A stretch of 64,000 nt of DNA, taken from Candidatus Nanosyncoccus sp. GTDB lineage: Bacteria > Patescibacteriota > Saccharimonadia > Saccharimonadales > Saccharimonadaceae. The notes under the pieces are model-generated. The model was not told the origin of the DNA, did not search any database, and was given only the letters and a program-made list of their open reading frames with translations. The DNA lies in NCBI GenBank assembly GCA_045641305.1, contig JAZUGS010000013.1, forward strand, positions 421-64,420. The letters run 5' to 3'. Shown here piece by piece: positions 844 through 51,648 of this stretch; positions within the stretch are counted from its first letter, which is position 1, and each line of letters opens with the position of its first letter. Position numbers and translations under genes: made by a program.

Positions 844-1247
844 AGTTTTATTGTATCACTTTTTTGCCTTGGGTGGCAAAGCGTCAGTTGATATAGACGC
901 TCTGCCTAGAAGGAGGAACAAGTGGCCACACATGATCTGTTTGACCACGAGGCGACGATAGCACGGCGAAAAATTTTTTGCAACCCCCTTTGCAAAAAAA
1001 TATCCGGTGTTTTTTCATGATAAGCCTAGACGGAATAGCAAAAAGCGGAAGTGGAATTGATTTCGTATTGTGGGGTTGCTAATGGCGACAACTTATGTAT
1101 TATAGATATCGGGTTGGAGATTTTTAATTTTCGAACATTATAGATCCTTCGTGTGAGGGGGATTTATAAATCGTGACAATTCTAGATAAGTTGGGTAAAG
1201 TCCCCCAAAGTTTAGTTAGATAAAAAACAAAAACTAAGGAGGATGCT

Positions 1248-1322
1248 ATGGAGATTGAATTTCATTTCAAACTTGTAGTGAAGCCTAAAATTAAAAAAGT
1301 TACCGTCCAACTAGAACGGTAA
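1248..1322 (+). CDS. 24-aa small peptide MEIEFHFKLVVKPKIKKVTVQLER, candidate type I toxin (copy 1)
   Basis: AAGGAGG SD lies 5 nt upstream. The promoter is TTGCTA-N16-TATTAT at about 1075-1102. A near-identical ORF is present at 18268-18342. Confidence 0.7.
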   Translation: MEIEFHFKLVVKPKIKKVTVQLER

Positions 1323-1352
1323 CCTAACCCAAACGATAGGTTTCTAGAGCCT
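1285..1352 (-). ncRNA. Candidate antisense (antitoxin) sRNA to copy 1 peptide mRNA
   Basis: A minus-strand TTTACT...TGaTAGAAT promoter at about 1358-1385 is followed by hairpin GATAGG/CCTATC, then terminator GTTACCGT-loop-ACGGTAAC plus a T6 tract. Confidence 0.6.
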
Positions 1353-1408
1353 ATCCATATCTACATTCTATCACTTCCTCCTTAAAAGTAAAGCACCATC
1401 AAGGCGCT

Positions 1409-1741
1409 TTACTTCTTTTGCGCAGTAATGTTAGCAGGGCGACCATAGTTGGGAATAATAATGTCAACTTTTTCGCCGAGATGATTATAGAGCGGAATAT
1501 TAAGCTCAGAAGCAAGCGCATTTACAACGGTGGCACCAATGCGGAGACCAGTAAACGAGCCTGGTCCACTCATAAAAGTGATTTCGGTGAGGTCTTGCCA
1601 GGTTTTACCATTTTCAGCAAGTTTATCGTGAATAAAAGCATGCAAATTTTCCGCTAAATCACGACCAGATTGCCAGCGATATTCATGGTCGTCCAATTTT
1701 AAGACCGTTTCGAACGTAGATGTATCAAGATACATTTTCAT
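1409..1741 (-). CDS. tsaB: tRNA threonylcarbamoyladenosine biosynthesis protein TsaB (short form)
   Basis: YLDTS and GPGSFTGLRIG motifs; adjacent to tsaE. Confidence 0.9.
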   Translation of the reverse strand: MKMYLDTSTFETVLKLDDHEYRWQSGRDLAENLHAFIHDKLAENGKTWQDLTEITFMSGPGSFTGLRIGATVVNALASELNIPLYNHLGEKVDIIIPNYGRPANITAQKK

Positions 1742-2139
1742 AGAATTATCTCCCTCGTGCCATCTTCATTGTAATTAATATGGATTTTGACACAGTCTTT
1801 CGGCAAAATGTCCTGAACAGAGTCCGCCCATTCTACAACCACCACTGCGGTGGGGTCAGAAATGGACTCATTTAAATCATCAAGCATAAGCCCTGGATCT
1901 TGAAGACGATAAAAATCGTAATGAATCAGTATCCCGCCAGCAAAAGCATATTCTTTTGAAATCGTAAAACTTGGGCTCGTGACAGGCTCCTTAACGCCAA
2001 GCCCCTGAGCCAAACCGCGCACAAAAGTAGTCTTACCGGCGCCAACATCGCCAATAAGTTCAATAACTGCCGGAGTGTGTATTCCCTTGGCAAACTCGGT
2101 AGCAAATTCGATCATCTCTTTTTCAGATGCAATTTTCAT
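1738..2139 (-). CDS. tsaE: tRNA threonylcarbamoyladenosine biosynthesis ATPase TsaE
   Basis: GDVGAGKTTF, SPSFTI, HYDFYRL and VVVEWAD motifs. Confidence 0.95.
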   Translation of the reverse strand: MKIASEKEMIEFATEFAKGIHTPAVIELIGDVGAGKTTFVRGLAQGLGVKEPVTSPSFTISKEYAFAGGILIHYDFYRLQDPGLMLDDLNESISDPTAVVVVEWADSVQDILPKDCVKIHINYNEDGTREIIL

Positions 2140-2153
2140 GGTAAAATTATAAC

Positions 2154-3365
2154 ATGAAAATTTATATTTCGGGAATTTCAGGAACTGGTATGGGGCCGCT
2201 AGCTTTGATGGCTAAAAATGCCGGCTTTGAGGTTGCAGGATCAGACCGCGCAGAGGGGGCAATTTTATCAGAATTAATACAGAATAAAATTGATGTAAAG
2301 ATAGGCGATCAGGATGGTAATTTTTTGAAAACAAAAATCAACGAGGGGTACGACTGGTTTGTGCATACTTCGGCTCTGCCAGAAGATCATCCAGAACTAA
2401 AACTAGCGCGCGAATATGGAATTAAGATTTCAAAACGAGACGAATTAACTGCTTTTCTCGTAGAAAAACTCGGGCTGAAAATGGTCGCCGTAGCTGGCAC
2501 ACATGGCAAGACAACTACTACTTCAATGATTGTTTTTGCCAGCTTAAAGCTTGGGCTACCCGTTTCTTATATTGTTGGTACAACTCTTGGATTTGCGCCA
2601 AGCGGCTCATATCGTCCTGGTGATAAATATTTCATCTACGAAGCGGACGAATATGATCGGAACTTTTTAAAATATCGTCCGTGGTTAGCGGTTTTGCCTT
2701 TTGTATCATATGATCATCCAGATGTTTACCCTACGCATGCGGATTATTTAGCGGCTTTTGAACAATTTAAATCGCAAAGTCAAAAAATTTTGGAAAATAT
2801 TCAAATTGATCAACGTATTAATTTGGCGGGAGAAGCGCGTAGACATGATGCAACATTGGCGCTTGCAGCAATCAAACTAATGGCCTCAGAAATTGATGAG
2901 GAGAAAATTGCATCAACACTAAATCAATTCCCTGGCGTGGGGCGTCGTTTTGAAAAAATATCAGACGGCATTTACACAGATTATGCGCATCACCCAGAAG
3001 AAATTGCCGCCACAATAGAAATCGCAAAAGAAGAAGCTAAAATTAAAAACAAGCGTGGTGTGATAGTAGTTTATCAACCGCATCAAAACACACGCCAGCA
3101 CGAAGTTATGAATGGCTACAAAGATTCATTCGTGGGAGCTGATAAGGTTTTTTGGTTGCCAACTTATTTAACCAGAGAGAACCCGGAACTTCCTGTTCTA
3201 ACTCCAGAAAACTTGATTACTAAAATGGACAATGCCGAAATTGCCGAGCCGGCAGAGTTAAATGACGCATTGGCAAACACGTTGAAACAATACCAAAAAG
3301 ATAATTATCTCGTGATTTTAATGACGGCGGGACCGGCCGATGGTTGGCTACGCACGATTTTTTAG
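2154..3365 (+). CDS. murC: Mur ligase, MurC/Mpl-like
   Basis: GISGTGMGPLA, VAGTHGKTTTT, EADEYDR, DYAHHPEEI and YQPHQ motifs. Confidence 0.8.
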   Translation: MKIYISGISGTGMGPLALMAKNAGFEVAGSDRAEGAILSELIQNKIDVKIGDQDGNFLKTKINEGYDWFVHTSALPEDHPELKLAREYGIKISKRDELTAFLVEKLGLKMVAVAGTHGKTTTTSMIVFASLKLGLPVSYIVGTTLGFAPSGSYRPGDKYFIYEADEYDRNFLKYRPWLAVLPFVSYDHPDVYPTHADYLAAFEQFKSQSQKILENIQIDQRINLAGEARRHDATLALAAIKLMASEIDEEKIASTLNQFPGVGRRFEKISDGIYTDYAHHPEEIAATIEIAKEEAKIKNKRGVIVVYQPHQNTRQHEVMNGYKDSFVGADKVFWLPTYLTRENPELPVLTPENLITKMDNAEIAEPAELNDALANTLKQYQKDNYLVILMTAGPADGWLRTIF

Positions 3366-50219: not shown

Positions 50220-50308
50220 GATTTACTATTTTGCACCCGTAGGCTATCGCCTTCGGGCGCGGCATTCGTCGAAAGAGCAAGAGCAAGCTCTTGTCTTTCT
50301 CCTCATTT

Positions 50309-50385
50309 GCACCCGTAGCTCAGTGGATTAGAGCACTTGTCTTCGGAACAAGGTGTCGTGGGTTCGAGTCCCTCCGGGTGTACCA
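50309..50385 (+). tRNA. tRNA-Arg(TCG)
   Basis: Anticodon arm CTTGT-CT-TCG-GA-ACAAG and encoded CCA. Confidence 0.92.
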
Positions 50386-50549
50386 GGTTTGAAATTTCGA
50401 AAAAATTATACTAAAAGAGTTTATCAAAAACAGCCCAAAGAAATTTGGCCACGTAGTGGTAGAATAATATATTTTAATTCGATAAGACGCCGCCACCCAT
50501 GATTGGGTGGCTTTTTACGCCAAAGTGCCAAGTTTATGATATAATTACT

Positions 50550-50635
50550 ACATAAAAGTCCCGCCATCCCCCAGGATGGTGACGGGATTGTATGGTTTTG
50601 TAGTTAACTAGCCTAGCTAGTTAACTTTTTTAGTT
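50550..50635 (+). ncRNA. Candidate antisense sRNA to copy 3 peptide mRNA
   Basis: TGaTATAAT at about 50538-50546, hairpin TCCCG..CATC/GATG..CGGGA, terminator GTTAACTAG-loop-CTAGTTAAC plus T6. Confidence 0.55.
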
Positions 50636-50694
50636 TTCAATCTCTTGATTGAGAGTTTAATACTAAACTTAAAGAATTTAATCTCGAAGCTCAT
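50617..50694 (-). CDS. 25-aa small peptide MSFEIKFFKFSIKLSIKRLKTKKVN, candidate type I toxin (divergent copy 3)
   Basis: AAAGGAG SD; promoter TTGCAA-N17-(TGc)TATCCT about 150 nt upstream; same stop-in-hairpin layout as copies 1 and 2. Confidence 0.6.
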   Translation of the reverse strand: MSFEIKFFKFSIKLSIKRLKTKKVN

Positions 50695-51027
50695 ATTTTC
50701 ACTCCTTTCCGCTGGGAGACCTCTAATAGCCTGGGTCTATCGTTCAGCAAGATCGCCCGTCAAACCCTCAAAGAAACTTTAAGAATTGGCACCTCGCCAG
50801 AACAACTAAAAATTTTAACGAACCACACGGGGAGGATAGCATGGCTGGGATGGTTTTGCAACCGCATGAAAAATATTTGTGGAAGCTAAGGAAATTTTAA
50901 GCCTAGGCAGGATGGGTTTTACGCCAAAGTGCCAAGTTTTTATCCTCTTGCGCTTTGGGTTTGTTTGGTGTATAATGTGGGGGTAAATCCCGTAAGGGTC
51001 GGCCCTGCTTAAGCGGGGAAAACAATC

Positions 51028-51420
51028 TCACAATAGGCGCTTTAGCCTATTTTTTATTTCTGCCAAATCTTCTTTCTTCATTCTCCCCATTAGCTTTCCT
51101 GAAATCCTTGATGTATCAAACGCCCTCAACTGACTTAAAATAGCTACGCTATGCTGATTATCTAGAAATGTAAAAGAAAAATAATATTTTCCAGATTTAT
51201 TTCGTGAAGTCAATGGCACGCCCCAGAATAATTCTTTTGAAAAACCACGAATTATTGCGACTGGCCTAGAAAATAGTTCACCTTTGCCGTCCTGCTCCAT
51301 ACCGATGTTATCGCCAATTAACACCCAATAAATGCCGCCTTCCTTGTAGTTGGGTCTAGCATCGGTATTATTGTTTACTACCATTTTAACTGGTGTCCAT
51401 TTTTTATAATCTTTTTTCAT
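51028..51420 (-). CDS. PemK/MazF-family endoribonuclease toxin
   Basis: GGIYWVLIGDNIGMEQDGKG..FSRPVAII, GVPLTS, ILSQLRAFDTSRI. Confidence 0.9.
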   Translation of the reverse strand: MKKDYKKWTPVKMVVNNNTDARPNYKEGGIYWVLIGDNIGMEQDGKGELFSRPVAIIRGFSKELFWGVPLTSRNKSGKYYFSFTFLDNQHSVAILSQLRAFDTSRISGKLMGRMKKEDLAEIKNRLKRLL

Positions 51421-51648
51421 GTTTACTCCTATTTTAATTTAACAAAAAAACGCGCTGAGCGCGGTAGCGCGATTGTAGCGCGGATGGGTGGATTTTGCAA
51501 CCCCATGAGAATTTTTAAGCCTAGGCGGGATAGTTATAGATGATAGCCATAATAAGTGGCTATTTTTGGGCTTAGGGAAGGTGCGGCATAATAAAATAGT
51601 AGGTAGTGGGCAAAAGGTGGGAAGGAACAATAATTAAAGGAGGATAGC

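Follow-up and report, generated by a model that had tools for sequence, protein, structure and literature searches.

Transcription control is little known in the Saccharibacteria and other Patescibacteria, which possess few recognisable regulators and are hard to grow. Among the closest described systems, the KorB operators (OB) of the IncP plasmids comprise about a dozen copies of a short palindrome that lie at varied distances from promoters and coordinate a selfish element's genes; KorB itself belongs to the ParB family. In Escherichia coli, several type I toxins are controlled by LexA. Here a 16-base box is described that recurs in 64,000 nucleotides of Candidatus Nanosyncoccus sp. (Saccharimonadaceae; GenBank assembly GCA_045641305.1, contig JAZUGS010000013.1, positions 421 to 64,420). 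This whole stretch is referred to as the window, and it belongs to a genome of 620 kb in 17 contigs that is 96% complete. The box lies beside promoters of a PemK-family toxin gene and of three small peptide-encoding cassettes. It is most likely a cis-regulatory site, in a lineage for which none was found described in the literature searched, and is read here with moderate confidence as the predicted binding site of a transcription regulator restricted to one clade.

The box reads TAAGCCTAGGCGGGAT on the plus strand, and the minus-strand reading of each copy is ATYCCGCCTAGGCTTA. Five matches with at most three mismatches are present in the window, where 0.38 are expected, and none of 100 shuffled sequences reached five. 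Four of them, boxes 1 to 4, had been reported in the original prediction as intergenic copies in the same orientation with a palindromic core. A pattern search confirmed their coordinates, their location on the plus strand and their non-coding position; the core GCCTAGGC is indeed palindromic, the 16-mer as a whole is not, and the recurrence of the box is real. When a position matrix was run over the whole genome, the four copies scored 24.5 to 28.1 bits and the next-best site 16.4, and no strong copy beyond the four was found in the 620 kb. All four fall within the 8% of the genome that a simple gene call does not assign to coding sequence (chance P about 4e-5), and the motif is neither frequent nor randomly placed. 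The sequences GCCTAGGC, CTAGGCTTA and CCTAGGCT yielded no further promoter-linked copies in the genome. The fifth match in the window (16936-16951, TAAGCGTAGGCAAGAT, three mismatches) lies inside murB and is probably due to chance; murB has a true upstream box in four relatives.

Each of the four boxes is followed by an A/T-rich spacer and then by a sigma70-type promoter of the form GGGG-TTGCAA-16/17-(TGn)TAnnnT. The gap from the edge of the box to the leftward TTGCAA is 37 nt for box 1, 36 nt for boxes 2 and 3 and 15 nt for box 4, all within the range of about 15 to 45 bp claimed earlier, and the -10 elements that follow TTGCAA after 16-17 nt are TATCGT, TATTAT, TATCCT and TACAAT, respectively. 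Leftward promoters, as listed originally, are present at all four boxes; the first TTGCAA is here corrected to 978-983, and a rightward promoter is added at box 1. The promoters of pemK, peptide 1 and peptide 2 were reported independently by a consensus promoter scanner. GGGG-TTGnnn promoters are confined to this clade, and boxless promoters of this type serve tRNA-Met, recA and the stretch following gyrA in this genome.

An exact-match search for ATYCCGCCTAGGCTTA in a collection of 185,579 species genomes found the sequence in 96 stretches of DNA. About 35 of the 80 stretches listed are from Saccharibacteria/Nanosyncoccus and represent at least 22 metagenome-assembled genomes (MAGs), obtained from goat, sheep, yak, buffalo and other guts; several of the 16 further stretches resemble Saccharibacteria loci by their context, and the remaining matches are scattered singletons in unrelated phyla. 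Among 36 congeners, RGIG2340 (G021) possesses eight copies and about seven others have one convincing copy each. Across 401 genomes from 255 genera of the order, 12 genomes besides the present one contain one or two one-mismatch matches, which is background when compared with the six found for a reversed control, and no match was found in 19 genomes that represent other genera of this family. The box therefore belongs to part of one genus.

Between 47 and 55 distinct instances of the box were available for the analysis of context. Those in relatives are all intergenic, with the exception of gyrA, whose TAA stop codon supplies the box's first three bases. A GGGG-TTG promoter lies within about 85 nt in 36 of the first 47 instances and may be on either side, so that the box is used in both orientations relative to the promoter. 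The units served in relatives include PemK-like toxins (four in total), a CdiA_C-domain protein, a KilA-N protein, a MazG-like protein, comM and comEC, a secreted protein adjoining gyrA, and at least 12 homologues of the peptide cassettes. The pattern of cassette promoter and transcript start is found in 13 of 37 congeners, with no convincing examples in other families, and about 11 of the 18 cassette promoters in congeners have no upstream box. Given these boxless promoters and the boxes located at non-cassette genes, the box is separable from the cassette.

Conservation was examined at two junctions. In the intergenic region between the recA-adjoining cassette and murB, compared in four species, the 16-mer is invariant and both flanks contain substitutions and indels. 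At the junction of gyrA and the secreted-protein gene, the box is kept in at least eight species, in both orientations. Information content is at background one or two positions outside the 16-mer. The box shows two properties expected of a transcription-factor site: intergenic, promoter-proximal and non-random placement, and conservation at orthologous loci amid diverged flanks.

The recA "leader" in four species (L032, L066, L083 and L087) is in fact a peptide cassette (MEVEVENIKLIIRLKISPRKAKRN) followed by recA's own TATAAT promoter, and the presence of repair genes (recA, uvrD, rpsF-ssb) near boxes therefore largely reflects the location of cassettes and not direct control. Another repair gene, ruvA, lies near one box in relatives. 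The recA-adjoining cassette of relatives forms a hairpin with compensatory changes, and the recA gene of the present genome has lost the cassette. Neither cassette nor box was found after folD in four relatives or before recA in other genera. The commonest upstream neighbour of the box, at about 15 loci, is the 3' end of a surface-protein gene of the Fib_succ_major type, the same family as the target of the diversity-generating retroelement (DGR) in the window; the spacers between these surface-protein genes and the boxes are not conserved.

The distance between box and promoter falls into discrete classes. On the ATYCC side the gaps to the -35 element are 7, 18, 28-29, 39, 50, 61 and 82 nt, plus a 54-nt class, and on the TTA side they are 15-17, 29, 36-37, 63 and 73-74 nt; in one genome a variant of the box, TAAGCGTAAGCTACTG, occupies the 7-nt position. 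Orthologous loci differ in their box-promoter gap by 11, 21, 32 or 43 bp. A periodicity of 10-11 bp was detected, with R 0.55-0.68 and permutation p 0.0016-0.01 when the independence of loci is judged by hand, and R reaches 0.95-0.99 at 10.5-10.7 bp without the 54-nt class. This spacing places the centres of the boxes near -50.5, -61.5, -72, -82.5 and -93.5. Tandem sites are present in two genomes, where the box is accompanied at a distance of 21 bp by a second site, AAGCCTAGGCTT. Common to the 54- and 73-nt classes is a further conserved element, CAGAGGTGAAA-N4-5-TTATG, located exactly 19 nt upstream of GGGGTTG.

This second element was encountered at the loci L012, L017, L035, L103, L114 and L122 and at those of RGIG2340 (L021-L025 and L028). 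Two orientation classes exist, with the element 11 nt from the box in one and about 30 nt in the second. It resembles a ribosome-binding site with an ATG, but its interpretation as coding sequence was rejected because the downstream reading frames vary from 2 to about 40 codons and lack conservation.

No hairpin was found at the box, which with 12-nt flanks folds at a minimum free energy (MFE) of 0 to -1.3 kcal/mol (z +0.6 to +1.5), and in Rfam 15 only tRNAs reached threshold, with nothing meaningful at E up to 1 around the boxes. The sharp information boundary, the lack of a hairpin and the lack of an Rfam match argue for recognition as duplex DNA. Several other classes of element were considered and rejected. 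Structured repeats of the repetitive extragenic palindrome (REP), miniature inverted-repeat transposable element (MITE) or attC type possess the stable hairpin that is missing here; no intrinsic terminator is called at any box, as there is no G+C-rich stem with a run of T; and a parS site for ParB, which is a perfect palindrome of 16 bp present in a few copies that cluster near the origin and also occur within genes, is at odds with an asymmetric 16-mer that is strictly intergenic and spread over four contigs in RGIG2340. The box is not a promoter itself, either with TAGGCT as a -10 element or as a sigma54 -24/-12 pair, since no consistent partner hexamer or spacing exists. A small plus-strand open reading frame (ORF) ending at the TAA of the box (MAGMVLQPHEKYLWKLRKF in copy 3) was also rejected, since a TGA interrupts the frame in copy 2 and copies 1 and 4 hold only a shortened version. 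No description of the motif was found in the literature searched, and no RNA run was found to cover the locus.

Recognition as a duplex, sharp bounds, conservation amid diverged flanks, use in both orientations, tandems two helical turns apart and whole-turn spacing together fit a protein-binding site in communication with RNA polymerase or another bound protein. The box is predicted to be a double-stranded DNA recognition site of about 18 bp, with the consensus YY-ATYCCGCCTAGGCTTA-W built around the palindromic core, and its binder is predicted to be a sequence-specific transcription regulator confined to a single clade of gut Saccharibacteria. The box would lie upstream of strong sigma70-type promoters (GGGG-TTGnnn-17-(TGn)TAnnnT), sometimes overlapping them, and would set the output of mostly toxin-type genes. 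Putative targets in the window are the PemK toxin, the three type-I-toxin-like cassettes and the structured RNA that precedes radA; those in relatives would comprise a CdiA_C-like toxin, KilA-N and MazG-like proteins, comM, comEC, the secreted protein and the cassette ahead of recA. We infer that a protein binds the box and that its binding alters transcription. The phased upstream positions would fit an activator or a cooperative repressor, and the few sites that overlap core promoters are placed as a repressor site would be. A bolder and more tentative proposal is that the box is the operator of a predicted clade-specific master regulator, which, in an epibiont with a reduced genome, would coordinate the chromosomal toxin modules, namely type-I-like peptide cassettes, the orphan PemK and a CdiA_C-like toxin, with the DNA-uptake genes comM and comEC and whose sites would be gained and lost in whole helical turns.

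Several observations weigh against a regulator-binding site. The 54-, 63- and 73-nt classes are off the main phased series, and the grouping of loci into independent states is partly subjective. Some TTA-side promoters of the TATAAT type lie 6-22 nt from the box, so that the geometry is mixed; at these promoters part of the -35 region or of the spacer would be covered by the box. Its confinement to part of one genus, with a patchy distribution of zero to eight copies per genome, also fits a selfish or neutral element, and the box has been lost at orthologous loci, including the recA/murB and gyrA junctions of the present genome. Finally, no candidate regulator emerged among the DNA-binding proteins seen in the genome. 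A protein of 108 amino acids with only a LexA_DNA_bind domain and no S24 domain is encoded outside the window (contig C15, 42468-42794) and is present in all 61 genomes of the order that were sampled; a single HTH_3 protein of 520 amino acids has orthologues in 16 of the 17 genomes searched; and a GntR/YtrA-like protein has its own, different palindrome (TGTATTAA...TTAATACA). These three were rejected as the regulator for being near-universal in the order or for possessing a different operator. HrcA is also encoded in the genome; it binds the CIRCE element, which is unlike the box. No helix-turn-helix protein of the CRP/FNR type was found in the genome, and no small protein family recurs beside the boxes.

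The boxes and the features that adjoin them are listed in Table 1.

Table 1. Boxes, promoters and transcription units in the window (positions are those of the window)
Feature	Position	Strand	Description
Box 1	1021-1036	+	TAAGCCTAGACGGAAT, 2 mismatches, 24.5 bits; between two divergent GGGG-TTG promoters
Box 2	18550-18565	+	Exact match, 28.1 bits; 10 nt past the stop of a 1426-aa ORF (18576-22856, minus strand)
Box 3	50898-50913	+	TAAGCCTAGGCAGGAT, 1 mismatch, 24.7 bits
Box 4	51516-51531	+	Exact match, 28.1 bits; between pemK and avd
Leftward promoter by box 1	955-983	-	GGGGG-TTGCAA-17-TATCGT
Structured RNA of about 100 nt ahead of radA	844-952	-	MFE -36.5 kcal/mol, z -5.25; predicted product of the 955-983 promoter
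radA	1-843	-	Pfam; own near-leaderless extended -10 promoter TGaTACAAT at 850-879
Rightward promoter, peptide cassette 1	1076-1103	+	GGGG-TTGCTA-16-TATTAT; 39 nt from box 1
Peptide 1 ORF	1248-1322	+	MEIEFHFKLVVKPKIKKVTVQLER; inside inverted-repeat arm 1072-1383
Promoter, peptide cassette 2	18486-18513	-	GGGG-TTGCAA-16-TATTAT
Peptide 2 ORF	18268-18342	-	MEIEFHFKLVVKPKIKKITVQTEQ; inside inverted-repeat arm 18205-18517
Promoter, peptide cassette 3	50833-50861	-	GCGG-TTGCAA-17-TATCCT
Peptide 3 ORF	50617-50694	-	MSFEIKFFKFSIKLSIKRLKTKKVN
pemK promoter	51472-51500	-	GGGG-TTGCAA-17-TACAAT
pemK, PemK/MazF-family toxin gene	51028-51420	-	PF02452, 3.6e-9

Two of the gene associations first proposed for the box are positional only. 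The leftward promoter of box 1 would produce a leader RNA ahead of radA, but the association with radA itself is weak, as that gene is served by a promoter of its own. Box 4 does adjoin avd, but avd has no GGGG-TTG promoter directed towards it. In relatives, reverse transcriptases do not recur in the vicinity of boxes, and the 3' end of the DGR target in this genome has no box; involvement of the DGR was rejected on these grounds. The promoter of radA belongs to a second type, TGnTATAAT extended -10 promoters without a -35 element and with very short or absent leaders, which serve many genes here and in related genera, comM, comEC and the LexA-like gene among them.

The three peptide cassettes each contain a leader of 130-140 nt, a Shine-Dalgarno sequence, an ORF of 24-25 codons and two hairpins, and are type-I-toxin-like; this layout is conserved across species. 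Cassettes 1 and 2 form the arms of a 310-bp inverted repeat with 92% identity, and their downstream stems differ by compensatory pairs. The repeat encloses 17 kb of housekeeping genes, including tsaE, recA, recX, murB and folD, and this segment could invert via homologous recombination. The inverted repeat stops at the GGGG of the -35 element, so that boxes 1 and 2 lie outside it, and the two boxes are oppositely oriented relative to their cassette promoters. The surroundings of boxes 2 and 3 match each other over 75 nt, with 80% identity. A tyrosine recombinase gene (48820-49662, plus strand) adjoins tRNA-Ile (50143) and tRNA-Arg (50309) and is followed by cassette 3, pemK and the DGR, a layout suggestive of an integrated island; alternatively, the role of the recombinase may lie with the nearby inverted repeats at 43213-43326 and 46353-46465. 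Another repeat, GGGTTGGTTTAAAATTTCAAGATTCCTATCTTTAAGTTCATAACC, is found outside the window in three copies on contig C16 (13058, 14729 and about 16000), one of them upstream of a CdiA_C-like gene.

No antitoxin ORF was seen adjoining pemK. An ORF upstream of pemK that runs over box 4 (51439-51630) was rejected as the antitoxin, its translation being implausible and absent in relatives. A candidate small RNA is located at 50948-51058 on the plus strand, with a TTGCGC-17-TATAAT promoter, a transcript of about 80 nt and the terminator AATAGGCGCTTTAGCCTATTTTTT; it is convergent with pemK and overlaps its 3' end, and could be an RNA antitoxin, or the terminator could simply be shared with pemK. The pemK transcript appears to open with a G+C hairpin followed by U7 (51451-51463, minus strand), which may be attenuator-like or a stabilising 5' stem, and a similar hairpin is found in RGIG2340 after the box-associated promoter upstream of rpsF-ssb (L021).

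The original prediction offered either an operator or the footprint of a shared mobile unit. The main rival, in which a mobile promoter-toxin cassette of small size has left the box as its footprint or uses it for recombination or insertion, with no regulatory role for the box, is rather unlikely. The box would then mark the places where type-I-toxin-like and PemK cassettes became inserted or were duplicated. In favour of this reading, the box is genus-limited and patchy, at zero to eight copies per genome, and most boxes lie on multi-copy cassettes whose loci differ between species, with neither cassette nor box after folD in four relatives or before recA in other genera. The 75 nt shared by copies 2 and 3, the tandem cassettes headed by boxes 3 and 4 near tRNA genes and the tyrosine recombinase, and the flips of box orientation among species at gyrA point in the same direction. 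However, the 310-bp inverted duplication excludes the box, and yet a box is found 36-39 nt from each of its copies, in opposite orientations. Most cassette promoters in congeners have no box, whereas boxes are present at promoters unconnected with cassettes (comM, comEC/tRNA and the secreted-protein gene); the box has neither an arm-spacer-arm architecture nor a hairpin; and helically phased spacing is not predicted by a fixed insertion site. The operator half of the earlier alternative is thus the better supported, by footprint, phasing, tandems and separability, and the mobile half is the weaker. Protein binding without any role in initiation was also considered, the bound protein serving as a boundary or roadblock against read-through into toxin promoters from the gene upstream, which would often be a strongly expressed surface-protein gene. 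This would be a variant of protein binding, and it is improbable. About 15 boxes follow the stop codon of a Fib_succ_major-type gene by 5-100 nt, usually without an intervening intrinsic terminator; the close approach of box 2 to the end of the 1426-aa ORF and of the gyrA box to the gyrA stop codon also agree with a roadblock. Against it, two boxes in RGIG2340 follow a good intrinsic terminator, which leaves nothing to block, many boxes, such as box 1 and that of the recA-cassette/murB region, are flanked by divergent promoters and would meet no incoming transcription, and phasing to the downstream promoter would not be expected of it.

A LexA-type SOS operator, with the cassettes, PemK and the repair genes as a DNA-damage regulon, appears very improbable, even though recA, radA, uvrD, ruvA, ssb and comM are all among the neighbours of the box and a LexA_DNA_bind protein is encoded in the genome. 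That protein of 108 amino acids is devoid of the S24 cleavage domain, has no box at its own promoter and is universal in the order, whereas the box is not; recA, radA and rpsF-ssb are each served by a separate promoter that lies beyond the box-driven unit, on its downstream side, and recA of the present genome has no box at all. The conserved bases, moreover, are central and not at the ends of the 16-mer, and most sites are upstream of the -35 element. The LexA operator was rejected, since an S24 repressor, a box at lexA and recA, overlap with the core promoter at most sites and co-distribution of protein and box all fail to appear. Equally slight is the chance that the box acts at the RNA level, in the processing of or binding to read-through transcripts, or that it is a neutral relic of duplication. 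Box 2 and several boxes of relatives do lie in the 3' untranslated regions of upstream genes, and copies 2 and 3 belong to a longer duplication, but boxes occur in both orientations relative to the flanking genes, after terminators and between divergent promoters, have no structure, and are perfectly conserved amid diverged flanks.

If the box is the binding site of a clade-restricted regulator, as preferred here, the defined site of 16-18 bp and its promoter class would provide a handle on transcription control in Saccharibacteria, and the box would mark out a candidate epibiont regulon in which toxin modules are joined by competence genes. The master-regulator version, if true, would give this lineage its first described cis-regulatory code, besides the published work on LexA. 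If the box is only a scar of the cassette, the result is of local interest. The analysis also documents the promoter architecture of the clade (GGGG-TTGnnn-17-TGnTAnnnT) and a widespread family of type-I-toxin-like cassettes.

Comparison with known systems shows partial likenesses to each. The LexA boxes of tisB, dinQ, symE and hokE likewise provide one operator common to small-toxin genes and loci near repair genes, but the defining features of LexA fail here. Mobile promoters, REPs and bacterial interspersed mosaic elements (BIMEs), and MITE-like repeats are, as the box is, intergenic, multi-copy, lineage-restricted, often located after gene ends and variable between species; the box differs from all of these in its length of only 16-18 bp, its lack of a hairpin, its few copies and its separability from the repeated cassette. 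In comparison with the KorB operators, the arrangement of a multi-copy operator at varied promoter distances is alike and the sequence is unrelated. The CRP sites of E. coli, an example of class I and class II activator sites, are centred at -41.5, -61.5, -71.5, -82.5 and -92.5 and are also unrelated in sequence; only the central 8 bp of the box are palindromic, no CRP/FNR-type protein accompanies it, some of its spacing classes are off phase and some boxes overlap core promoters. The box is nevertheless similar to CRP sites in its short dyad core, in its whole-turn distances, in serving divergent promoters and in occurring in either orientation, and its phased positions, from about -50 to -94, resemble the geometry of class I activators.

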